Shown here one piece after another: positions 14,843 through 26,147 of a stretch of 40,000 bases of DNA. The stretch is from Rhizobiaceae bacterium (GTDB lineage: Bacteria > Pseudomonadota > Alphaproteobacteria > Rhizobiales > Rhizobiaceae): positions 57,023 through 97,022 of the forward strand of contig JACVCH010000012.1 in NCBI GenBank assembly GCA_016742175.1, in the 5' to 3' direction. A program made the translations under genes and the position numbers. The notes beneath the pieces were generated by a model. That model saw only the letters and a program-made list of their open reading frames with translations, was not told where the DNA came from and ran no database searches. Numbering within the stretch: the first letter of the stretch is position 1; every line of letters begins with the position of its first letter.

Positions 14843-15981
14843 TACGCAACCTTCGCAAAGGCATGCATATGGTCGAGGCGCGCCAAATGACCGGATAACA
14901 TTTTGATGTCGCGTCCAACGTTTTGAATGTCGTTCCAGTCTCGCTGAAGTTCCGTCCACCTGCCTGTCGTCCAACGGCAATATGGAGCGATCCGTGACAG
15001 AGACTGTGTCGCGTGGAGGAGCAGGTCCGTCCCTGGCGCTGCACGCGACATGATCCGGTCCATCAAGAGGCTCATCGCCTCAATGCCCGCTGAGTGCATG
15101 AGTCGACTTTCTGTGGCTGGACGGCCCCACGCTTCCGGAAACACCGTGCGCACAGCGCTCCAGTAGGCGACAAGTGTGCGGTACATGGCATCAATGTCGG
15201 CGGGCGATTCTGCTGTCGCCTTGTATGGAGCAAGACAGCCAAGCGCACTGTTGATGCTGTTTCTGATCGCTTTGATCAAGGCCGAGTCCGTCACGACTGC
15301 AGTGGCAGAATCCTCGGACAGTCTCTTGATCAAGCCGAAGAACGGAGACTCTGCAGACGTTTGCAGGAGATTGACCAATTCACTGGGAATTTTCCGAGAC
15401 GAAAGGTCACGCGGGAAGGTGGTGTCCACCTCGGGGAGCAATTCGTTGATCAAGCGAGGATCAAGGGGCCTGGCCTTATTGACCAAGATGAATTGCTCAC
15501 GATGAACTGACAGTTCTTCCGATACGAAGGCAATAACAGGAACCGGGAAGGTTTTGTTCTGAGCCTGGGAAAGCGCGAGTGAGCGCTGCTGCCCATCAAC
15601 GATCCAGGCCGCCTTTGGACCATTGATGGGCAGGGGGATCCGCAGCGTCCCCGCTTCACAAGAGCGTACATCACCGCTCGGCCGTTCGCCCCGCGCCTGC
15701 GTAAAGCGCGCCCGGGGTGAAATGGCGAGAATGATAGCATTCGGGAAGAGCACGGGACCTTGATCTAAGAAATCTGTTATCGCTTGAACGTGACTCAGGA
15801 TTCCTTTGCGCTGAAATCCCTGCAGCCCTCCCTCGCTATCGCGGTGGACACGGCTAATTTCGGCAATTTTCAGCAGGTCAGCACCAGCCACAAAAAACGC
15901 GTAGACCGCTTTGTCCGCCTGTTCCGTGCGAACTGCCCGTACTGCGAGCGTAGGCTCCGCTGCTTTGCGCGGGCGTGTCAT
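14842..15981 (-). CDS. DGQHR-domain (DndB/ParB-like) protein, DpdB-like, paralog 2
   Basis: Same motif set as 12468-13556: LQGFQR, PNAIILAI, WIVDGQQRSLAL, EQFILVNKARPL, SRLMHSAGIEA. Start ATG 15981 overlaps the upstream stop (ATGA 15978-15981). Confidence 0.75.
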   Translation of the reverse strand: MTRPRKAAEPTLAVRAVRTEQADKAVYAFFVAGADLLKIAEISRVHRDSEGGLQGFQRKGILSHVQAITDFLDQGPVLFPNAIILAISPRARFTQARGERPSGDVRSCEAGTLRIPLPINGPKAAWIVDGQQRSLALSQAQNKTFPVPVIAFVSEELSVHREQFILVNKARPLDPRLINELLPEVDTTFPRDLSSRKIPSELVNLLQTSAESPFFGLIKRLSEDSATAVVTDSALIKAIRNSINSALGCLAPYKATAESPADIDAMYRTLVAYWSAVRTVFPEAWGRPATESRLMHSAGIEAMSLLMDRIMSRAAPGTDLLLHATQSLSRIAPYCRWTTGRWTELQRDWNDIQNVGRDIKMLSGHLARLDHMHAFAKVA

Positions 15982-16922
15982 GACAACTTCCTTTCGGTCA
16001 AAGCAGCTTGATAGAGCCGACTAAATCGCGCTTGCTCACAGGCAACTCCCTCTTCGTCCCGAAGCGCGCGCAAGATGCGGGCGACGCCTGTTTCGGTCTG
16101 GAGGCGAACCCCAATCAACTCAAGGATTTCCGCATCAGTCCGCCGCGGCCTAAGGGGTCTCGCAGGCGGTGTCACATTGTCTAAGGCGCTAACGACAGCC
16201 GCATGGTCAGCGTCACGGTCTTGATCATCATTGCCTGAGACCAGCCCTACAAAGTGATGCAGCGCCCGCTGAGAAAAGTCCGCCCGCGTCCCGGGACTGA
16301 TCGCGTCAAAACGCGCGTCGTAAGGCACGAGCGCCGGATGCAACGCTGCCGGCAGCACGGGAGCCAATGAAGCGCCAAATATTCGCAATCGCTTCAAAAC
16401 GTCCGGCCGCAGCGTACCGAGGCTCTCGCCCACCATTTGGGCATATGGACGTGTTAGCGCGATCAGAATACGCCCGGAGGCCGCGCCAACAACATCATCC
16501 CACTGATCCGACAGAGGAGACGATAGAAGACCAGAGAACCAAGCCGCTGCGTCGAATTCACCTCGGACTTTAGCTGCGACAGACTCCGCATGGCCAGAAG
16601 AGACCGTTAGCCCGTACGTTGGCACGTGGCGATCGGCAGGCACCAGACCCAACCCGGCCGAAAGCACGTAGAGCCTTGCCTTAGCGTTCTTTGCTGCCTT
16701 GACCGCCAGCGAGAACCCGCGCCCCGCATAAAGATCCGCCACAGCGATTTCCGCTGGCAGAGTCTGAACTTTCTTAATCCACGCAGCTTGGACTGCGTCC
16801 TGCGGGCCTGGTGGCAAAGCTGCCGGCGTCGAGCAGAACTGAGGTCGCGCTCTTTTTCGAAACGCACAGATTGTGATGATCACATCAACTTTCTTTGGTG
16901 TCGTTTCCCTTGGCGCGTTCAT
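15978..16922 (-). CDS. Hypothetical 314-aa protein, first gene of the modification operon (occupies a DpdC-like position; identity unverified)
   Basis: Long ORF translationally coupled to the next gene. Contains ...ARLYVLSAGLGLVPADRHVPTYGLTV..., reminiscent of the LSxxYGL...PY pattern of DUF328/DUF6884-type proteins. That comparison is from memory and is weak. Confidence 0.6.
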   Translation of the reverse strand: MNAPRETTPKKVDVIITICAFRKRARPQFCSTPAALPPGPQDAVQAAWIKKVQTLPAEIAVADLYAGRGFSLAVKAAKNAKARLYVLSAGLGLVPADRHVPTYGLTVSSGHAESVAAKVRGEFDAAAWFSGLLSSPLSDQWDDVVGAASGRILIALTRPYAQMVGESLGTLRPDVLKRLRIFGASLAPVLPAALHPALVPYDARFDAISPGTRADFSQRALHHFVGLVSGNDDQDRDADHAAVVSALDNVTPPARPLRPRRTDAEILELIGVRLQTETGVARILRALRDEEGVACEQARFSRLYQAALTERKLS

Positions 16923-17335
16923 TTTTCACCCAATAAATGCGCACTAGACACTTCCGACTGCACCGAAGAAATCGATAAGACCTCTACATATGGTGTACCG
17001 GAGTGTGCGCCCTACCACCTGTGTGCGCCATTTACGGTGCCGCTAGATAGCTACAGCAACAGTGAGGGTTTGGCAAAGGGGTGGTCGATAAATGCTATCC
17101 ACGCTGCACAGATTTTCGAAATGTCCGCAGTTATTGCATCCATTTTGAATCATCTTGCGCACTAATGCGTCCCTGGAAGCGTGCTTGACGAACTCTCTGC
17201 CAGTGTCGCAGGTGTCTCAAGCATGATGGACTCCATACGGCAGCCCTAAAATCGCACGGGTCCGCCTCCGCGTGGTGAGAATTGCGCAACTGCGGACAAC
17301 AGAGGGACTGCTCATTGTTGTGGGAGGACTGGCGT

Positions 17336-17400
17336 GGGGAGGCAAAGTCGCTTGGGTCCCTCCCCGTCGCAGGGGCGTCCCGCGGGGTGCGCGGAGCCCC
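17336..17400. repeat. GC-rich inverted-repeat block (two potential hairpins) inside an AT-richer spacer
   Basis: GGGGAGG (17336-17342) pairs with CCTCCCC (17359-17365). GGGGC (17372-17376) pairs with GCCCC (17396-17400), enclosing the palindrome CCCGCGGG (17379-17386). Confidence 0.4.
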
Positions 17401-17553
17401 GGTGTCTGATAGATTTCGTTTATCGTAGAGGGGCTCTTTAGGCGGAAAACCTAATTGCGTTCGCCCTCAGCTTACCTCTCTCAGAATCTCAGGCGATCCC
17501 CTCTCGACAATAGGAGTTCTTATTTTAGCCAGCGTCTGGGAGCGGATTTTGGG

Positions 17554-17873
17554 TGTCATCGCGGGTGTGACGCTGTGACGGGTAAATTAGCCGTGTCACA
17601 TTGCTTCTGTCACATCGTTCAACCAATTCATCTTATTGCGTTTTTTCCTTCAACATCTACTAAGTGTGACGAGTGTGACAGGGTTCTCTAAAGAATCAAA
17701 AATTAAGTTTTGGGGCGCTGCGGCAAGGCAGTGCCAGACCCTTTCCCGGAGTTCCTTCTTTGCTAAGGCAGGACGCCTGCAACCTGTCACAGCGTCACAG
17801 AGGTAGTTAAACATTGAACTTCCCAGAGGTTCGGAGTGTGACAAGAAGAGTGACAGGAATATTAGCCTGTCAC
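17554..17873. repeat. Array of ~11 TGTGAC/GTCACA hexamers in closely spaced pairs of alternating orientation (candidate protein-binding array)
   Basis: TGTGAC at 17566, 17574, 17665, 17674 and 17837, plus GTGACA at 17850. GTCACA at 17595, 17609, 17786 and 17794, GTCAC at 17869, and TGTCA at 17554. Pair spacing is 8-14 bp. About 0.2 copies of one hexamer would be expected by chance in 320 bp on both strands. Confidence 0.7.
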
Positions 17874-17879
17874 GTGCTG

Positions 17880-18476
17880 TCTACAGCAACTGCGCGGCAG
17901 AAGCCGCCCATCTGTTCGAGAAGATCAACCACAGACTGCTGACGCTGGATCGCGAGCGCTGTAGCCGCGAGGCATCTCCCACCGGCATCGATCATCGAGC
18001 AAGGGCATCAAGACCTGCGAGAGCGGCAGGCCGTGCGGCTATGACGAAGGCAAGAAGATCAAAGGCCGCAAGCGTCACGCGTTGGTCGAAACCGACGGTC
18101 GGGCGCTGGTGCTGTTCCCGCACCCTGCCAGCAGACCGGATCGCGACGGTGCGGGTCCGGTGCTGCAGGCCTCTCCGCGACCGTTTCCCTTTCCGCAAAG
18201 TCTTCGCAGACGCAGGCTATCAGGACCGCGCGTCGCGGAAGCCACCTCCATCGCCGTCGAGATCGTCAAGCGGAAGCCCGATCAGGTCGGCTTTGCCGTA
18301 CAGCCGAGGCGATAGGTGGTCGAACGCTTTTCGCCTGGATCAGCCGCAACCGAAGGCTCTGGAAGGACGCGGAGGCCACCATCGAATCCGCCACCGCATT
18401 CCTCTGCGCCCCAGCCGTCATGATCCTCGTCAGACGCATCGCGCGAACTCACGGGCAGTTTCGCCACGGACTCTAA
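17880..18476 (+). pseudogene. IS5-family (IS427/IS1031-like) transposase remnant, 5'-truncated, with a nonsense mutation and frameshifts
   Basis: Across frames the translation reads FEKINHRLLTLDRER..REASPT, GYDEGKKIKGRKRHALVETDGRALV, FADAGYQD, AVEIVKRKPDQVGFAVQPRR*VVERF and AWISRNRRLWKDAEATIESATAFL...LVRRIAR. TAG at 18313-18315 replaces the conserved Trp of PRRWVVERF. A 1-nt deletion lies near 18330. The N-terminal third is missing. Terminal stop at 18474-18476. Confidence 0.85.
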
Positions 18477-18630
18477 GGTATTAAGTCGGATCGAACAGAA
18501 GAGGCTTGCGTTCTGCTGAACAGGGGTCGAGCGCGCCTGAGTGGCCTCCATCAGGTCCTCGATAGCTGGGGTCGATACGAAGCGGTTCTTCGAACGCCGT
18601 TTTACCTTGTTGGTCCACTATAGCGGACAT

Positions 18631-18810
18631 TTATCTGCCTAGCTTCGAGCGACGCACAGCCTCGCTCAGCGCGCGACTTGTCGCCGTTTCGTCAGCCCCG
18701 ACATTGCCGCGCGAAAGGACGATATAGTTAGAGCGAAGACGTCGTGCCGACTCAATGGAGCCGAAAATCGTAAAGATGTTATCGATGGTGCGTGCGAGAT
18801 AGCGGTTCAT
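18631..18810 (-). CDS. Possible small protein (59 aa), unknown function
   Basis: Below the ORF-track cutoff. ATG 18810 is preceded by AGGAG with 5-nt spacing. Translation is MNRYLARTIDNIFTIFGSIESARRLRSNYIVLSRGNVGADETATSRALSEAVRRSKLGR. No homology recognised. Confidence 0.3.
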   Translation of the reverse strand: MNRYLARTIDNIFTIFGSIESARRLRSNYIVLSRGNVGADETATSRALSEAVRRSKLGR

Positions 18811-18922
18811 AGCGGCTCCTACTGTTGCGCCGCAATATATTCATTCTCGCACTGCACGCAACGATTGATCGGGTATGGGAGCACTGCGCCATTTGCGTAT
18901 CGCAATGTCGCGACGGATTGAT

Positions 18923-20662
18923 CTACACCCTTCGGCCGGAAAGGGCCCTTGCTGCACGCCAAGCGAACACCAGAGCGGGACCGAGCGTAATCCCCGGGCC
19001 TGGATAGGCTCCGCCCATTACCGAGCGCATATCGTTTCCACAAGCATGAAGATTTGCAAATGCCTGTCTGCCGTCACGAAGTACTCGACCATCATTGTCG
19101 ACATCTAGACCAGCGGCGGTACCAAGATCCGAAATCACGACCTCAATGCCGTAGAAGGGTCCGCTATCGATCGGCGCCAGGCATGGATTAGGCTTGCAGT
19201 CCGGGTCCCCGAAGTGGCGCTGGTATTCGTCGCTGCCGCGACCAAAGATCGTATCCTCGCCGAGAATGGCATCAGCATTAGTCCGCGCCACGGTTACTGC
19301 GAGTTGGTACGGATCAATCGAAAGCTTGCGAGCAAGTTCGCTAATCGACTGCGCTTCAACAAGATAGCCGTTGGCAAGCATGGAGCGACGTCCGATGCCG
19401 AATGGCTTTGCGGCGCCAAGACCATATCGCCTTAGGAAGTTTCGATCGCAGATCAGAAACGCGCGCGCCGTCTGCCCCTTTGGCGTGACCGCCAGTAGTG
19501 CCTGACAGAAATGATGATAGTTCATCGCCTCATTGACGAAGCGCTTACCCTCAGAGGTGACAGCGATGACGCCGGGTTTGCCTCGATCAGTGACAGTGTG
19601 GGGAAACCGCGCCGCCGACCCATCACTTCGCGTAAAGCGAGATAAAGGTACCCAGAGCGCATTGTCGCCCATCATCGACCTCATGCGGCCGCCAACCGAA
19701 AGCGCGGCTCGAATTGTATCTCCCGCGTCCACAGGTTGGGCCGCCGATGCAAGGCCGGCCTCTAGTGGCAGGTAATGCGCGCGCAGTTCCGGGTCTTGGG
19801 AAAAGCCCCCCCCAGAAAGGATCACTCCACGGCGCGCATTGATGATCAGGCGGTGCCCCCGGCGTTCAAGTTCAACGTCGGTGACGCGCGCGCCTTCCGT
19901 CACGATACGGATAAGATTAGTCGACGTGGAGATTGTCACGCCGGCCGCAAGGCAGCGATCGAGCAGCCTCGCCGCCAGCGCGTTTCCCAGCACCAGCCGC
20001 CCGCCACGCCCGATCGTCAGGCGATCAAGAAGGTGCCGGGCACCGAGACTTGCGATCCTGACCATGTTGCGCCAAGAGGAAAGGGGTTTACGGAAGGCCG
20101 GAAGGTCGGCGCGGTCGACCATCATGCCTCCGAAGAGAGTCATCTCCGGTAATGGAGGGGCAAGAAGATCTCGATGGCGGCCGAGGTGCCTGATGTCGAA
20201 TGGCCGGGCTTCGAGCACACGCCCCCCCAGCGTGGCGCCGGCCGCGGCCTGATAGTAGTCCGGATATCGCAGCACCGGCTGCAATTCGAGTCCTATGTGT
20301 GCGCGCAGAAAATCGATCGCTGGGCCAGCCGAACGGACAAAGGTGGCGAGCAGCGGATCGTCGGCACCATCAGGCACGGTAGCGTGGAGATAGCGTGTGG
20401 CGGCCTCAAGCGAATCCGGCATGCCGGCTTCTTCTGCCAGCCTGTTGGCCGGCGCCCACACCATACCACCCGAGATTGCGGTAGTTCCCCCGATCCGCTC
20501 CGCCTTGTCCACCAGAAGTACATTCAACCCGTCAAAGGCCGCGCAAGCCGCTGCAGTCAATCCCGCAGCCCCTCCCCCGACCACGACGACGTCGTAGGCA
20601 GGCTCGATCGGAATGTCGGCGCCGGCTCGCGGATTTCCTTTGAACCCGCTCATCGCAAGCAT
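18923..20662 (-). CDS. FAD-dependent oxidoreductase (fumarate reductase/3-ketosteroid dehydrogenase flavoprotein-like)
   Basis: N-terminal dinucleotide fold YDVVVVGGGAAGLTAAACAA...LLVDKAERIGGTTAISGG. 579 aa. Start lies 1 nt downstream of the tctA stop. Confidence 0.8.
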   Translation of the reverse strand: MLAMSGFKGNPRAGADIPIEPAYDVVVVGGGAAGLTAAACAAFDGLNVLLVDKAERIGGTTAISGGMVWAPANRLAEEAGMPDSLEAATRYLHATVPDGADDPLLATFVRSAGPAIDFLRAHIGLELQPVLRYPDYYQAAAGATLGGRVLEARPFDIRHLGRHRDLLAPPLPEMTLFGGMMVDRADLPAFRKPLSSWRNMVRIASLGARHLLDRLTIGRGGRLVLGNALAARLLDRCLAAGVTISTSTNLIRIVTEGARVTDVELERRGHRLIINARRGVILSGGGFSQDPELRAHYLPLEAGLASAAQPVDAGDTIRAALSVGGRMRSMMGDNALWVPLSRFTRSDGSAARFPHTVTDRGKPGVIAVTSEGKRFVNEAMNYHHFCQALLAVTPKGQTARAFLICDRNFLRRYGLGAAKPFGIGRRSMLANGYLVEAQSISELARKLSIDPYQLAVTVARTNADAILGEDTIFGRGSDEYQRHFGDPDCKPNPCLAPIDSGPFYGIEVVISDLGTAAGLDVDNDGRVLRDGRQAFANLHACGNDMRSVMGGAYPGPGITLGPALVFAWRAARALSGRRV

Positions 20663-20663
20663 C

Positions 20664-22169
20664 TCAAACTTTTGCCCTGCGCCGGAAGGTGCGTGAGAAC
20701 AGATTGCGCACGAAGGTGCTCTGGAAGCTTAGCGAGATGATGATTAGTGCTAGGAATAGGATCGCCAGCGGGCGGGTGACGAACGGCTCCACGCTGCCCC
20801 CCGAAGCCAGCAGCGCACGTCGCAGACTGACGTCGGCCATGTTCCCTAGCAGCAGGCCGATCACGGCCGGGGCGATCGGGTAGCCGATCTCCTCTAGCAG
20901 GTAGACCACTACGCCGAAGAAGAACATCATGTAAATGTTGAACATGTTGAGACCGAGGGAATAAGAGCCCAGCACGGCAAGGAAGGCGACCACAGGCATG
21001 AGGATGGCGGTGGGGATGCGCAGCACCTGCACCGAGATGCGCACCATTAGGAGGCCGAGCACGAGGATCGTTAGCGAGGCCCACGCCAGCATGGCGGCCA
21101 TCTGCGGGATGAAGTTGGGAAACTCAAATGCAAGCATCGGACCTGGCCGCACGCCATGCAGGTTGAGCGCGCCGAGGAGCATCGCCGCCGGCGGCGACCC
21201 AGGGACGCCGAGCGTCAGGACTGGGATGATGGCGCCGCCGATGCAGGCGTTATTGGCGGTCTCGGCGGCGATGACGCCGCGAACATTACCGGTGCCGTAG
21301 CTTTCTGGTTTGGGATCGAGCTTGCGAGCGGCGTCGTATGAGGCCCAGGCAGCAATGTCCTCGCCCACGCCGGGAATGACGCCGACGCCCACGCCGATTG
21401 CGCCGGAGCGCATTACGCCAAACTTGTTGCGCCAGATTGCAAGCCAATCTGGCATGAGGCTGCCGATATTGGTGACGATTGTCTGCTTCATTTCGCGGTC
21501 GCGCAGGACGCGGAAGACCTGCGGAAGGGCGAAGCCGCCGAGGATGACCGGAACGACGTCGATGCCGCCCGCAAGGTTCGGATTGCCAAAGGTGAAGCGC
21601 TGGTAGCCCTGGATAGTTTCGATGCCAATACCGGCGAGCATGAGTCCGAAGATGCCCGCGATCCAGCCTTTTACGGGCATATCTGGCGCGGTCAGAGATC
21701 CACAGATCAGCACGCCGAACAGCGCCAGCAGGAAGAACTCAACCGACGTGAAGTTGAGCGCCAGCTCGACCAGGAGGGGAGAAAGGAGAACCATGGCAAT
21801 CAGGCCGATGATCGTGCCAATCACGCTGGCCAGCGTGGCGGTGGCAATGGCAATACCGCTCTTGCCCTGCTTGGCCAGGATGTGACCGTCAATGGCTGTC
21901 GCCGCGCCCGCTGCCGATCCAGGAATTCCGAGCAGGATGGAGGAGTGGGAGGGTCCGTAAATGGCGCCGACATAGGCGCCAATCAGCGCGACCATGGCGA
22001 GCTCGGTCGAGAAGCCGAAGGTCAGCGTGCTGAGCAGCGCCACGGCAAGCGTTGCGGTTAGACCGGGTAGTGCACCAAAAATAATGCCGAGCGCCGTTGC
22101 CGATACCATCACCAGCATGTTGATCGGCGTTGCGATTTCGACGAGTTGGACAAGGAAGGATTGAAGCAT
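20664..22169 (-). CDS. tctA: Tripartite tricarboxylate transporter, large permease TctA
   Basis: 501-aa polytopic membrane protein of typical TctA size, adjacent to TctB- and TctC-like genes. Confidence 0.85.
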   Translation of the reverse strand: MLQSFLVQLVEIATPINMLVMVSATALGIIFGALPGLTATLAVALLSTLTFGFSTELAMVALIGAYVGAIYGPSHSSILLGIPGSAAGAATAIDGHILAKQGKSGIAIATATLASVIGTIIGLIAMVLLSPLLVELALNFTSVEFFLLALFGVLICGSLTAPDMPVKGWIAGIFGLMLAGIGIETIQGYQRFTFGNPNLAGGIDVVPVILGGFALPQVFRVLRDREMKQTIVTNIGSLMPDWLAIWRNKFGVMRSGAIGVGVGVIPGVGEDIAAWASYDAARKLDPKPESYGTGNVRGVIAAETANNACIGGAIIPVLTLGVPGSPPAAMLLGALNLHGVRPGPMLAFEFPNFIPQMAAMLAWASLTILVLGLLMVRISVQVLRIPTAILMPVVAFLAVLGSYSLGLNMFNIYMMFFFGVVVYLLEEIGYPIAPAVIGLLLGNMADVSLRRALLASGGSVEPFVTRPLAILFLALIIISLSFQSTFVRNLFSRTFRRRAKV

Positions 22170-22194
22170 GTCGCGTCTCGCGGCTGGTTGCCCC

Positions 22195-22722
22195 TCAGGG
22201 CATTGGCACGAACAGGTGCGTAGTGAAGATGTAGGCCATCAGGGTCGGCACAGCTGCGGCGATGGCGGCGGTTGCGGCGATTCTCATAGGCAGCTTCTTC
22301 CCCGAATCAGGCCACCAGAACGCAGCGATGAAAAGAAAAAGGAATATGGCGCTGACGACACGGAAATCGGCCGAACCAATTCCGAAGAAGATGTAGACGC
22401 CGACCAAAACCATCATGAAGACGACGTTCTGCACACCGCGATTTTGTGGCAGGCCGCGCACCCAACCTGTGAACATGGCGCTGATGTCCGTTCCCCCCAC
22501 TTCCTTCCAGGCCGCGACCAGAACCCGGGCGCTGAATATGACCAGAAGAGTACCCAGAATGGCGGGATAGAGGCCGGGCGACAGATACCATTGCGAACCG
22601 CCGCCGGTGCGCGCGCTCGACCAGGGCATCTGGCTGGCAGCATACAGCATGACCAGTCCTAAGACGATCATGAAACTTGAAAAGACGATGTCGGCCTTTC
22701 GCCGTGCTCTTTCGGGCAGCAT
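22195..22722 (-). CDS. tctB: Tripartite tricarboxylate transporter, small membrane subunit TctB
   Basis: 175-aa protein with four hydrophobic segments, located between tctC and tctA. Confidence 0.75.
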   Translation of the reverse strand: MLPERARRKADIVFSSFMIVLGLVMLYAASQMPWSSARTGGGSQWYLSPGLYPAILGTLLVIFSARVLVAAWKEVGGTDISAMFTGWVRGLPQNRGVQNVVFMMVLVGVYIFFGIGSADFRVVSAIFLFLFIAAFWWPDSGKKLPMRIAATAAIAAAVPTLMAYIFTTHLFVPMP

Positions 22723-22809
22723 CGATTTCCTCCCGTCCCGCTAAATGACATCCCCGTGAAGCACTTGAACGGCGGCGGCCGCTCATGGCCACCGCCGTTG
22801 TCTCAATCA

Positions 22810-23808
22810 TCAGGGCTTTTCAATGCCCAGTTCGTCCGGCGACGTGGTCGCAATGCCCAGATCGAACAACGCCCAGCTCATCGCGTCTTCCATCTTCTGC
22901 AGCTCAGCTTCCGCCTCGTCGCCGTAGAGACCCGAGATCACCATCAGCCGCTCCTGGGCGAGTTGTTGAATCGACGGATCCTGAATCGCAGCCTCGAATG
23001 CTTCGTCAATGATCGCGACGGTTTCCTCGGGGGTGTCTTTCGGGATGGCCATGCCGAGCCACTGGCGGGTTGGGATGTCTTGAACTTTGGGATAGTCGGC
23101 GCCGACGGCCTCGATCTCGCCGATCTCAGGGAAGTCGAACGGCTCCATTTCGGTCATTGCGATTGGCCGCAGTCGCCCAGCGCGAATGAACTCGGCTTGC
23201 TCGCCGACGCCGCTGACCACTGCGTCCACCTCGCCGCTCATGGCGGCAATGTGGGCCGGTGCGCTGCCGTCATACGGCACGTACGTAAATTCAACGTCGG
23301 CCGCCTGACCGGACGCCAGTGCCTTCATGTGCCAAACGCAGCCGAGCGGGCAATGCGAAATGCGCACGCTGCCGGGATTCTCTTTCGATGCATCGACCAT
23401 GTCCTGGAAAGACTTATAGGGCGAATTTTCGGGCACGGAGATCACCCCCGGCCAACCGCCCACCATGTACCAACGCCAGTCCGGCGTGCCAGTGTCGTGG
23501 TAGCCCATTACCTTGACCACTTGCATGGCCTCGGAGGCACCGAGCCAACTATGGCCATCGTGATCCTGATTCCAGACATGTGTCATTGCCACGCCGCCGC
23601 CGCCGCCTGTGCGGTTGACCGCATTGATCCGCGTGCCCAGATGCTTCTGCATCGCTTCAGCGAGCAGACGATTTGTGACATCGGTTCCACCACCGGCCGC
23701 AGCCCAGATAGAGACCTCGATGGGCTTGCTTGGAAAATCCTGCGCCTGTGCGGCACCACCTACGACCAAGGCGGCCGCCATTACGAAACTAGCAATTTGT
23801 GCTTTCAT
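22810..23808 (-). CDS. tctC: Tripartite tricarboxylate transporter periplasmic substrate-binding protein TctC (Bug family)
   Basis: Signal peptide MKAQIASFVMAAALVVGGAAQAQ starts at the internal ATG 23808, with GGAGG 9 nt upstream. Bug-family-like body (...RTGGGGGVAMTHV...). Confidence 0.85.
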   Translation of the reverse strand: MKAQIASFVMAAALVVGGAAQAQDFPSKPIEVSIWAAAGGGTDVTNRLLAEAMQKHLGTRINAVNRTGGGGGVAMTHVWNQDHDGHSWLGASEAMQVVKVMGYHDTGTPDWRWYMVGGWPGVISVPENSPYKSFQDMVDASKENPGSVRISHCPLGCVWHMKALASGQAADVEFTYVPYDGSAPAHIAAMSGEVDAVVSGVGEQAEFIRAGRLRPIAMTEMEPFDFPEIGEIEAVGADYPKVQDIPTRQWLGMAIPKDTPEETVAIIDEAFEAAIQDPSIQQLAQERLMVISGLYGDEAEAELQKMEDAMSWALFDLGIATTSPDELGIEKP

Positions 23809-23897
23809 GTTGCGTATCCTCCACTTTTGACAGGTATTGTTGTTCTCCAATTACGGCCACCCAATCTCCCGACCGCAATTGCCCAACGGTGCCGGCC

Positions 23898-25331
23898 TTA
23901 CATATTGAACAGCACCAGCCGTTCCTCGGTCATGTCGCGAATGGCGTAACGCGGCCCCTCGCGACCAATGCCGCTATCCTTGACTCCGCCATATGCCAGT
24001 TGGTCGGTGCGCCATGTCGAGGTACCGTTAAGAATGACGCCACCGGTGCGGAGCCGCTTGACCGCCCGCATTGCGAGCTCGAGCCGCGCCGTAAAGATGC
24101 CACACTGGAGGCCGAAAGGGCTGTCGCTGATCGTGTCGAAGACCTTCTCAACGTCGTCGAAAGCCTGCAACGAAACCACGGGGCCAAACACCTCCTGGCA
24201 GACGACTTTCATATCCGGCTTCACGCCCGACAGCACGGTAGGCTCGAGTTGTGCGCCAGTGCGACCGCCGCCGGCCATCAACCTCGCACCCTGTGAGACC
24301 GCTTCCTCAACCCAGCTTTCCACACGGCGCGCGGCAGCTTCGTCGATAAGAGTGCCTACATCGGTGTCGGGATCGAGCGGATCACCGAATTTCAGTTTGC
24401 CGACCTCTTCGGCGACGCTCTTGCTGAAGGTCTCGATGACCGAGGAGTGCACAAACACGTTCTGCACCGAGATACAACTTTGGCCGGCAAGGCGCATCGC
24501 GTTGCGCGCGACAAGCGGCGCGGCGGTTTTAAGATCTCCATCTTCGCAAATGATGGTCTGACCAGTACCCCCGAGTTCGAGTGCCACGCGGCGAAGCCCG
24601 CTTGCAGCCTTTATTTCGGCGCCGACGCGAGTTGAGCCGGTGAAGGTAATGAAATCCACCCTTGGATCGCGCACTAGAAGCTGCCCGATTTCGTTGCCGT
24701 AGAGCGAATTGACTGAACCGGCGGGCGCACCTGCATCGACGAACAGGCGAACGAGTTCATGCACAGTGCGCGGCGCTTGCGGCGGCGGCTTAATAACGAT
24801 CGAATTGCCTGCGGCCAGTGCCGGGGCGATCTTATGAGCGGCGAGATTGAAGGGTGCGTTGAAGGGCGTTATGCCGGCGACGACACCTATGGGAAAGCGC
24901 AATAAGAAGGCAATCTTCCCGGCACCCATGGCTGTTCCATCGAGCGGCACGTGTTCACCTTCAATGCGGATCGCCTCCTCAGCCGAGAGGGACAGCGTGT
25001 CCTGCGAGCGAATGATCTCGTTCCGCGAATCCTTGATGGCCTTGCCTGTCTCGCGTGACATGATCTCGGCGATCATGTCGGCTCGCTCCAGCAATAGTGC
25101 GATAGCACGGCGCAGCACGGCGGCCCGTTCGAAGCCGGGCATGGCAGCCATCACTTTCTTAGCGCGAACAGCGGCATTGAGCGCATCGTCGAGATCGACG
25201 CGGGTCGATTCGGGAGCACGCGACACGATATCGCCGCGATAAGGGTCGCGCACGTCGAGAAGCGTGTCCGCTTCGCGCCATGCGCCGTCTATAAGCATGG
25301 GGACAGTGGTCGGCTGCTCGCGCTGGCTCAC
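23898..25331 (-). CDS. NAD(P)-dependent aldehyde dehydrogenase
   Basis: ALDH signatures: GITPFNAPFNLAAHKIAPALAAGNSIVIKPP, LELGGTG (catalytic Glu) and GQSCISVQ (catalytic Cys). 477 aa. Confidence 0.9.
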   Translation of the reverse strand: MSQREQPTTVPMLIDGAWREADTLLDVRDPYRGDIVSRAPESTRVDLDDALNAAVRAKKVMAAMPGFERAAVLRRAIALLLERADMIAEIMSRETGKAIKDSRNEIIRSQDTLSLSAEEAIRIEGEHVPLDGTAMGAGKIAFLLRFPIGVVAGITPFNAPFNLAAHKIAPALAAGNSIVIKPPPQAPRTVHELVRLFVDAGAPAGSVNSLYGNEIGQLLVRDPRVDFITFTGSTRVGAEIKAASGLRRVALELGGTGQTIICEDGDLKTAAPLVARNAMRLAGQSCISVQNVFVHSSVIETFSKSVAEEVGKLKFGDPLDPDTDVGTLIDEAAARRVESWVEEAVSQGARLMAGGGRTGAQLEPTVLSGVKPDMKVVCQEVFGPVVSLQAFDDVEKVFDTISDSPFGLQCGIFTARLELAMRAVKRLRTGGVILNGTSTWRTDQLAYGGVKDSGIGREGPRYAIRDMTEERLVLFNM

Positions 25332-25424
25332 TTTACGATCTCCTCCCTGTCTACCATTCGATCACGATAGGCATTGCAATCTGGTTGTTGACCGACCTTA
25401 TGTTGCGAGAATATGGAATGTCAA

Positions 25425-25438
25425 TTCATAATACGAAA
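25425..25438. promoter_or_regulatory. Conserved box TTCATAATACGAAA in the divergent ALDH/hypothetical promoter region (weaker neighbour at 25405-25418)
   Basis: Matches TTCACAATATGGAA at 11/14 positions. The adjacent GCGAGAATATGGAA matches at 10/14. Confidence 0.4.
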
Positions 25439-25487
25439 TGATTGAGACCGGTCCGGTCTGATATCATGAATGATGCAAGGTGACGAA

Positions 25488-26147
25488 ATGAACAAAAGCG
25501 CGCGCGGGGCTCTGATCATATGGCACGACATGCCGGAAGAGCAAAGAGACGAGATGTTGGCTTGGTACAATAGTGAGCACCATGCGGAGCGCGTGGACAT
25601 AGAGGGCTTTCATGGGGTCCGGCGCTACCATGCAGTCGAGGCGGACCACCAACTGTTCATACATTACGAGACGTCGGGGCCCGAGGTGCTATCGTCGGAG
25701 TCCTACCTCGCGCGGGTCAACGCACCGACCGCGTGGAGCTTGAAGTGCCAGCGGTTAATCCGCAACAATTCACGCACCGTGTGCGCCCTTGAGAGCCGGC
25801 ACGGCACCGCGCGGGGCGGATTCGTGGTGACGCACGCACTCCGTGGAACAGTTGATGAAGAGCGCGCTCAGTCCTTCGCCGCACAGCGAAAGGCAGCCGG
25901 CCAAGTGCCAGGGTTTTTGGCCTGGGAGGCATTTCGCGCCGATAATGGCGCTTCGGCGCTGCCGAGTGCAGAGAAGTCGCTACGGGGCAAGGCCGATGAC
26001 CACATCGCCGGGTTGCATGTATTTCACGTCATGGACCTCGGATCCGCGCGCGCTGTCCGTGACACGCTCCTGCAGGTTCCCGCACTTTTGGGTACCGAAA
26101 CTGGCATTTTCCAGCTTGCGTTCTCTCTATCGCCATCAGAACGGTAA
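25488..26147 (+). CDS. Hypothetical protein (~219 aa)
   Basis: Codon-biased ORF divergent from the ALDH operon. ATG 25488 is preceded by AAGGTGA; ATG 25470 is an alternative start. No motif recognised. Confidence 0.55.
   Translation: MNKSARGALIIWHDMPEEQRDEMLAWYNSEHHAERVDIEGFHGVRRYHAVEADHQLFIHYETSGPEVLSSESYLARVNAPTAWSLKCQRLIRNNSRTVCALESRHGTARGGFVVTHALRGTVDEERAQSFAAQRKAAGQVPGFLAWEAFRADNGASALPSAEKSLRGKADDHIAGLHVFHVMDLGSARAVRDTLLQVPALLGTETGIFQLAFSLSPSER

Follow-up and report, generated by a model that had tools for sequence, protein, structure and literature searches.

A repeat array in a tRNA-Arg island of a Rhizobiaceae bacterium, probably an orphaned replication origin of SaPI/PICI design

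A dense array of short repeats with the core GTGAC, found within the window (the whole stretch of 40,000 nucleotides analysed here, C22:57023-97022, where C22 denotes the contig), is, with a probability of roughly 85%, the orphaned or relic iteron-type origin of replication (ori) of an integrative element built as int / AlpA / PriRep / ori (PriRep being a primase-helicase), a design known from SaPIs and PICIs; it most likely follows this known design, with no need to invoke an element of a new kind. This explains a cluster of repeats that would be puzzling otherwise, and a probable binding protein can be named: judging from sequence, the likeliest present binder of the array is PriRep_B, the product of an intact paralogue of the lost rep gene. 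An earlier note on this DNA had viewed the array as a platform for cooperative protein binding, and this general idea holds, with binding by PriRep_B as the predicted form of it. In the following, plain positions are those of the window, positions preceded by C22 are those of the contig, and L003 and L004 are loci within C22:44638-112418.

The array and its surroundings

The array is a real and highly non-random feature (Table 1). The observation of the earlier note, 11 to 12 hexamers in 320 bp, is confirmed: the exact hexamer TGTGAC occurs nine times, on the + strand at 17566, 17574, 17665, 17674, and 17837 and on the - strand at 17595, 17609, 17786, and 17794; two further sites share only the core GTGAC (AGTGAC at 17850 and TGTCAC at 17869, which is GTGACA on the other strand), which brings the number of cores to 11, and a twelfth copy near 17556 is degenerate (TGTCAT). 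The arrangement in tandem pairs was described accurately, as the spacing within pairs is 8, 14, 9, 8, and 13 bp and successive pairs switch orientation. With the flanks aligned, the consensus of the repeat is TGTGACAGG, which is longer than the hexamer alone. Genome-wide, TGTGAC is present in 499 copies in 4.30 Mb (0.116 per kb), from which 0.037 copies are expected per 320 bp; the Poisson probability of finding at least nine is approximately 4e-19, and the runner-up 320-bp stretch of the genome contains three. A search of the genome for other clusters of TGTGAC pairs, as had been proposed, accordingly returned none with more than three copies per 320 bp, and a single partial copy of the array beside the gene for PriRep_B. 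The DNA is also AT-rich, with a GC content down to 34-40% at 17600-17700 as compared to approximately 65% for the genome; this trough is bordered by the pairs at 17595/17609 (-) and 17665/17674 (+), with more pairs following on either side.

Table 1. Features of the array and of the adjoining DNA (window positions; for the array, the strand is the direction of the relic rep gene)
Feature	Position	Strand	Remarks
dpdC-like gene (DUF6884), first of the dpd modification operon	15978..16922	-	transcription leads away from the array, parallel to that of the relic rep gene
Iteron array, candidate replication origin of a PriRep element	17554..17874	-	11 GTGAC cores, consensus TGTGACAGG
Iteron pair, TGTGAC x2, 8-bp period	17566..17579	+	exact motif search
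Iteron pair, GTCACA x2 as read on the + strand, 14-bp period	17595..17614	-	exact motif search
AT-rich trough between iteron sets, candidate DNA-opening site	17600..17720	.	GC 34-46%
Iteron pair, 9-bp period	17665..17679	+	exact motif search
Rep-proximal half of the array	17781..17911	-	72-78% identical to C22:100299-100424 (DNA 3' of the intact PriRep gene)
Iteron pair, 8-bp period	17786..17799	-	conserved in the second copy, next to PriRep_B
Iteron pair, TGTGAC and AGTGAC, 13-bp period	17837..17855	+	
Lone iteron, TGTCAC (GTGACAGG on the - strand)	17869..17874	-	
IS5-family transposase gene fragment, between array and rep scrap	17912..18477	+	DNA match
PriRep 3'-end scrap (last ~25 codons and ~40 bp)	18500..18611	-	~78% identical to the paralogue, 1-nt indel, stop codon lost

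As stated in the earlier note, the array is located between genes of the island and the remnant of an insertion sequence. To its left lies the dpd cluster, which on the - strand encodes a DUF6884 (DpdC-like) protein, two DndB-like proteins, a TGT-like DpdA, QueC, a radical-SAM protein, and a transporter of the Vut_1 family (putatively involved in vitamin uptake), and on the + strand contains a DEAD/DEAH-box helicase gene and unassigned ORFs. To its right, the IS5-family fragment matches annotated IS5 transposases on plasmids of Rhizobium and others at no more than 84%; within 16000-26000, strong DNA matches in genomes of the same genus (80-94% identity) are confined to this fragment, the rest being short matches of at most 76%. 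Searching 16923-17900 by blastn against plasmids gave no match, an Rfam scan of 15000-20000 at E <= 1 revealed no known RNA family, and the array was not found in the 60 relatives searched (seven of them of the same genus); it is known from one genome. Between dpdC and the array there is a GC-rich stretch with hairpin potential (17336-17400, 82% GC at 17350-17399), and an ORF of 59 aa with a good ribosome-binding site (18631-18810, -) is found between the rep scrap and a flavoprotein gene.

We give hardly any credence to the array being the end repeat of a transposon or MITE, or a chance cluster. It does abut an IS fragment, but chance is excluded by the probability given above, the IS5 fragment occurs in other genomes without the array, there is no second inverted end, and no other copy is present in the genome save the partial one beside PriRep_B. 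Transposon ends of the Tn7 or Mu type were considered and rejected because a second end is missing and the pattern of orientations is wrong; CRP-like, NifA-like, and DnaA-box sites were rejected as well because, as read from the sequence, both their spacing and their sequence misfit.

The proximity of the dpd genes invites another explanation, also put forward in the earlier note, namely that the array provides multiple operators for the dpd operon, 630-950 bp away, which a transcription factor would control from there. The array is indeed upstream of dpdC, on the correct side, and one weak sigma-70-like match can be found at 17675-17703; yet the start of dpdC is far from the array, the 1.5 kb upstream of the two dpdC homologues found in 400 genomes of the same order (n=2) are devoid of a repeat array, and repeats of the TGTGACAGG type also follow PriRep genes on the 3' side where dpd genes are missing (L051, L056, and the second copy in this genome; see below). 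A role as dpd operators is, thus, very unlikely.

Repeats downstream of PriRep genes

The statement of the earlier note that no replication protein is visible nearby has to be corrected: the window itself contains the scrap of a PriRep gene beyond the IS5 fragment (Table 1), and the intact paralogue is encoded 25 kb away on the same contig. When the array was used to search its own genome, the one other match was C22:100299-100424, 25 kb to the right and beyond the window, where the second copy of the repeats is located approximately 155 bp 3' of the PriRep_B stop codon. PriRep_B is a protein of 936 aa (L003 3567-6377, - strand). It contains a VapE-like domain (PF05272, E = 2e-60), and its PHROG matches are phrog_256 (DNA helicase, E = 2e-201) and phrog_9765 (DNA primase); a profile of the family (PriRep_B and 16 relatives) matches PDB 7PDS_A with E = 5.5e-71 at profile positions 435-817, and PDB 7PDS is the complex of SaPI1 Rep1 with DNA (PMC9371898). 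The gene is part of a module (element B) in which the genes for a P4-type integrase, a 266-aa ORF, an HTH_17 protein, an 80-aa ORF, and PriRep, followed by the repeats, are all arranged on the - strand. The integrase (459 aa, L003 7719-9098) contains an Arm-DNA-bind_3 domain, and the HTH_17 protein (64 aa, L003 6694-6888) is AlpA/excisionase-like. The 266-aa ORF between int and PriRep (L003 6961-7761, -) has no match in Pfam or PHROG; an ORF of the same size is found between int and PriRep in the element of G084 as well (L029 9294-10094, +).

The second copy of the repeats (L003 3240-3420) comprises five GTGAC cores, one of which has a differing flank, and one degenerate core, and its repeats are of the TGTGACAGG type. 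It holds only the sets nearest to the gene and no AT-rich part, and the convergent gene of a GntR/FCD regulator ends approximately 60 bp past it. In this genome, therefore, the intact initiator is accompanied by a truncated array only, whereas the complete array has lost its initiator. As the two copies are just 72-78% identical, a recent duplication is an improbable source, and descent from two related elements is probable. The C-terminal domain of PriRep_B, modelled from the single sequence with AlphaFold2 (residues 741-936), has a mean pLDDT of 36, and a winged helix in this domain is assumed by homology. A word-index protein search with the domain returned the query itself only; an exhaustive HMMER search returned 50 homologues.

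Genes for homologues of PriRep_B are present in 23 of 400 genomes of the same family. In the loci L006-L009, L013, L024, and L025 from such genomes, element-specific repeats are located 0-600 bp past the stop codon (for example, GATGCCACC, GGTGAGAA, AGGGTTCC, ATGGCCCC, GGGTCA, GGGTACAC, and AGTGGGTG), which are nearly missing elsewhere in the respective locus; they form tandem pairs or triplets with a period of 8-11 bp and alternating orientation which flank AT-rich stretches. L027 has a weaker cluster of CGGTAA, and in L016 the repeats are GTGAC/GTCAC, of the type GTCAC[C/T]ACC. In L006, three forward and two reverse repeats are followed by an AT-rich stretch, two forward repeats, another AT-rich stretch, and finally two reverse and two forward repeats, a succession of sets which is nearly that of the window array. 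Beyond their differing arrays, L007 (~390-470) and L013 (~330-400 past the rep stop codon), which are from different genera, have a sequence of approximately 70 bp in common, which may be a shared attachment site or the end of a gene.

PriRep_B alone as the query found no relatives in genome contigs, whereas scanning viral contigs with the family alignment was successful and yielded 78 IMG/VR loci with homologues. Within 450 bp past the stop codon, at least eight copies of one hexamer were found in 39 of these 78 loci, and in none of them within 450 bp upstream or within any intragenic stretch of 450 bp; this comparison is cleaner than the number of copies of the top hexamer per 400 bp, a statistic that is noisy in a GC-rich genome. 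In about half of the homologous loci, these 450 bp are without a strong array. L051, which with 57% identity is the closest homologue, is followed by 14 GTGAC cores with a 9-bp period and L056 by 12, in both cases with the consensus TGTGACAGG, while homologues farther removed use other repeats; gene and array follow each other uninterrupted in the second copy in this genome, in L051, in L056, and in L006. Across homologues, divergence is by far greater in the C-terminal ~175 residues than in the primase and ATPase parts (for L051, 36% as compared to 62-66% identity), as would be expected if the C-terminal domain sets the repeat specificity, which has been reported for SaPI Reps (PMC9371898). 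L057, L059, and L060 show weak C-terminal similarity yet have other repeats, and the link between C-terminal domain and repeat sequence appears to be only partial.

Direct and inverted repeats with a period of 7-9 bp also bear some resemblance to partition sites, for example, the heptad arrays to which omega of pSM19035 binds. An identification of the array as a partition (centromere-like) site for a ribbon-helix-helix or ParB-type protein is nevertheless extremely unlikely, as no par genes are seen beside either copy and the arrays are consistently located at the ends of rep genes. Among the options raised in the earlier note, it is that of iterons which gains support, from the rep scrap, from the paralogue with its TGTGACAGG repeats, and from the arrays that follow rep genes. 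For annotation, this suggests a simple rule: a dense array of alternating pairs of one short repeat, no more than about 500 bp past a gene for a VapE-type primase-helicase (or a scrap of such a gene), may be taken as an origin.

An 18-mer scan of genome contigs gave mostly chance matches and two loci from Anaerolineae MAGs (L042 4513-4761 and L044 3222-3459), with 11 TGTGAC repeats each (consensus cTGTGACag). There, the arrays directly follow the genes for primase-helicases of 971 and 986 aa (RepB_primase, PriCT_1, DUF927), whose detectable homology to PriRep_B is confined to the P-loop. Because the proteins are unrelated, these loci were rejected as evidence of homology and illustrate the design only; the same repeat and design in conjunction with unrelated proteins suggests convergence or an exchange of domains.

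The tRNA-Arg island and the fate of the array

The whole window is situated inside an island of 61.6 kb, which is bounded by a gene for tRNA-Arg(ACG) (C22:44638-44714) and a direct repeat of the last 49 bp of this locus at ~C22:106256-106304, directly past the integrase; the 49-bp repeat is found a third time, with one mismatch, at ~C22:112370-112418. A second island of 6 kb follows in tandem, encoding an AIPR-domain protein, a second integrase, and an IS1595 transposase. Just inside attL there are two adjacent ORFs of 301 and 397 aa (L004 1060-3162); the former reads like a tyrosine recombinase, and the two may be an insertion of the recombinase-in-trio type.

The dimensions of the island bear on a further proposal of the earlier note, that the hexamers are recombinase arm-type sites at an island end; the recombinase would be a tyrosine recombinase and the array would mark an attachment site, be it current or abandoned. 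Sites of this type consist of short repeats that occur in both orientations, the island carries a P4-type integrase with an Arm-DNA-bind_3 domain, and in L007 and L013 the array is located near the distal end of the element. The window array, however, lies approximately 30 kb from either att core and, thus, from either end of the island, and no core-like sequence was found in the window with up to three mismatches. A better candidate is the motif GAGTC[A/G]CCACC (GAGTCACCACC), for which the window was searched without a match; its four copies in the genome all belong to tandem pairs inside attL and attR (L004 779-800 and L003 9121-9142), which have the same orientation and are 64-93 bp away from the core of the former and 115-146 bp away from that of the latter. 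From this placement, the pairs are probably the arm-type sites of the P4-type integrase. Arm sites should be found on both arms, within ~250 bp of the att core, and the hexamers of the window array are not distributed in this way; in G084 (L029), the array motif is present only after PriRep, with none in the 100 bp that separate tRNA-Leu from int, and across the 78 loci the arrays follow the stop codon of the rep gene. We, therefore, regard arm-type sites as very improbable.

If the array is the orphaned origin of a PriRep element, its mode of action can be sketched from homology and anatomy: the C-terminal domains of PriRep hexamers would bind the TGTGACAGG repeats, the protein would melt the AT-rich stretch at ~17600-17720 and load itself in both directions, and the fused primase domain would then prime synthesis. 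Since the cognate rep gene is lost save for its last ~110 bp and the IS5 fragment has come to lie between this scrap and the array, the origin is orphaned in cis; with the cognate gene gone, the site can act only if PriRep_B binds it in trans. The first element would have lost int, alpA, and the greater part of rep in an IS5-associated deletion. Located beyond the ori and transcribed in parallel with the lost rep gene, the dpd cluster occupies the place where PICIs have their accessory genes (PMC6092414), and for this reason it was probably cargo of the decayed element. A dpd modification/restriction cluster in such a position inside a tRNA-Arg island fits the known pattern that defence systems travel on satellites and small integrative elements.

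It is conceivable, though on balance unlikely, that the window array serves the entire composite island of 61.6 kb as a functional origin. This reading draws on the facts that an integrase and a PriRep, both intact, and an AlpA-like protein are each encoded once in the island, that the repeats of PriRep_B itself are truncated and without the AT-rich part, that there are cognate att cores with matching candidate arm sites, and that the complete array has the same TGTGACAGG repeat. PriRep_B could then fire the window array over a distance of 25 kb, in the way P4 uses ori and crr; if the array fires, be it in the excised or in the integrated state, the neighbouring dpd defence cluster would be amplified.

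Comparison with P4, phages, SaPIs, and PICIs

The alpha protein of satellite phage P4 is a multifunctional primase-helicase, the C-terminal domain of which binds short iterons of the octamer type; the iterons are clustered at two sites, ori and crr, which act in cis, and ori is not located directly 3' of alpha. Ziegelin and co-workers are said to have described ori and crr together with the alpha primase-helicase in 1993. The ori/crr/alpha system is also mentioned in a study of PICIs (PMC6092414). A primase-helicase, two separate clusters of iterons, and a P4-type integrase acting at a tRNA gene would be the analogous features here; unlike in P4, the iteron sequence is a different one and the clusters are 25 kb apart and come from diverged paralogous elements.

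The closest phage homologues of PriRep_B, with 36-41% identity, are found in Ruegeria phages (DSS3-P1 group) and in Synechococcus virus S-ESS1 and are annotated as DNA primase/helicase or virulence-associated protein E. In S-ESS1 (the same 60362-bp contig as L060) a repeat cluster is likewise located downstream of the gene, but at a distance of ~300 bp, and these are full-size phages with other repeat sequences.

The ori of SaPIs is located immediately downstream of rep and contains 6-12 penta- or hexanucleotide iterons, half of them on each side of an AT-rich region and at least two per side opposed in direction, which are recognised by the winged-helix C-terminal domain of Rep (PMC9371898). 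The initiator of this design, Rep or a fused Pri-Rep, is a self-loading helicase which opens the DNA at the ori. PICIs of E. coli have an ori of the same organisation, and rep plus ori of EcCICFT073 drives plasmid replication; in Gram-negative PICIs the order is int / alpA / pri-rep / ori, and accessory genes come after the ori (PMC6092414). In the window, in contrast, the rep gene is destroyed and an IS5 fragment inserted, and the array has more sets (six) spread over 320 bp. Further, the island is a composite of 61.6 kb as compared to the 10-15 kb of a PICI, the host is a high-GC alphaproteobacterium, genes for capsid remodelling and terS or cos functions were not seen in the module of ~6 kb, and it has no known helper phage. 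Otherwise, the array resembles the origins of this group (SaPI1 Rep1, SaPI5 PriRep5, EcCICFT073) in that it lies 3' of the rep scrap with only IS5 in between, in that its 11 short cores are within the range of 6-12, and in that its sets of opposed orientation surround an AT-rich stretch. The helicase part of PriRep_B, the intact paralogue of the gene left as a scrap in the window, is homologous to SaPI1 Rep1; element B has int, the AlpA-like gene, PriRep, and the repeats on one strand and a specific att (the 49-bp repeat of tRNA-Arg), and, as in PICIs, accessory genes follow the ori.
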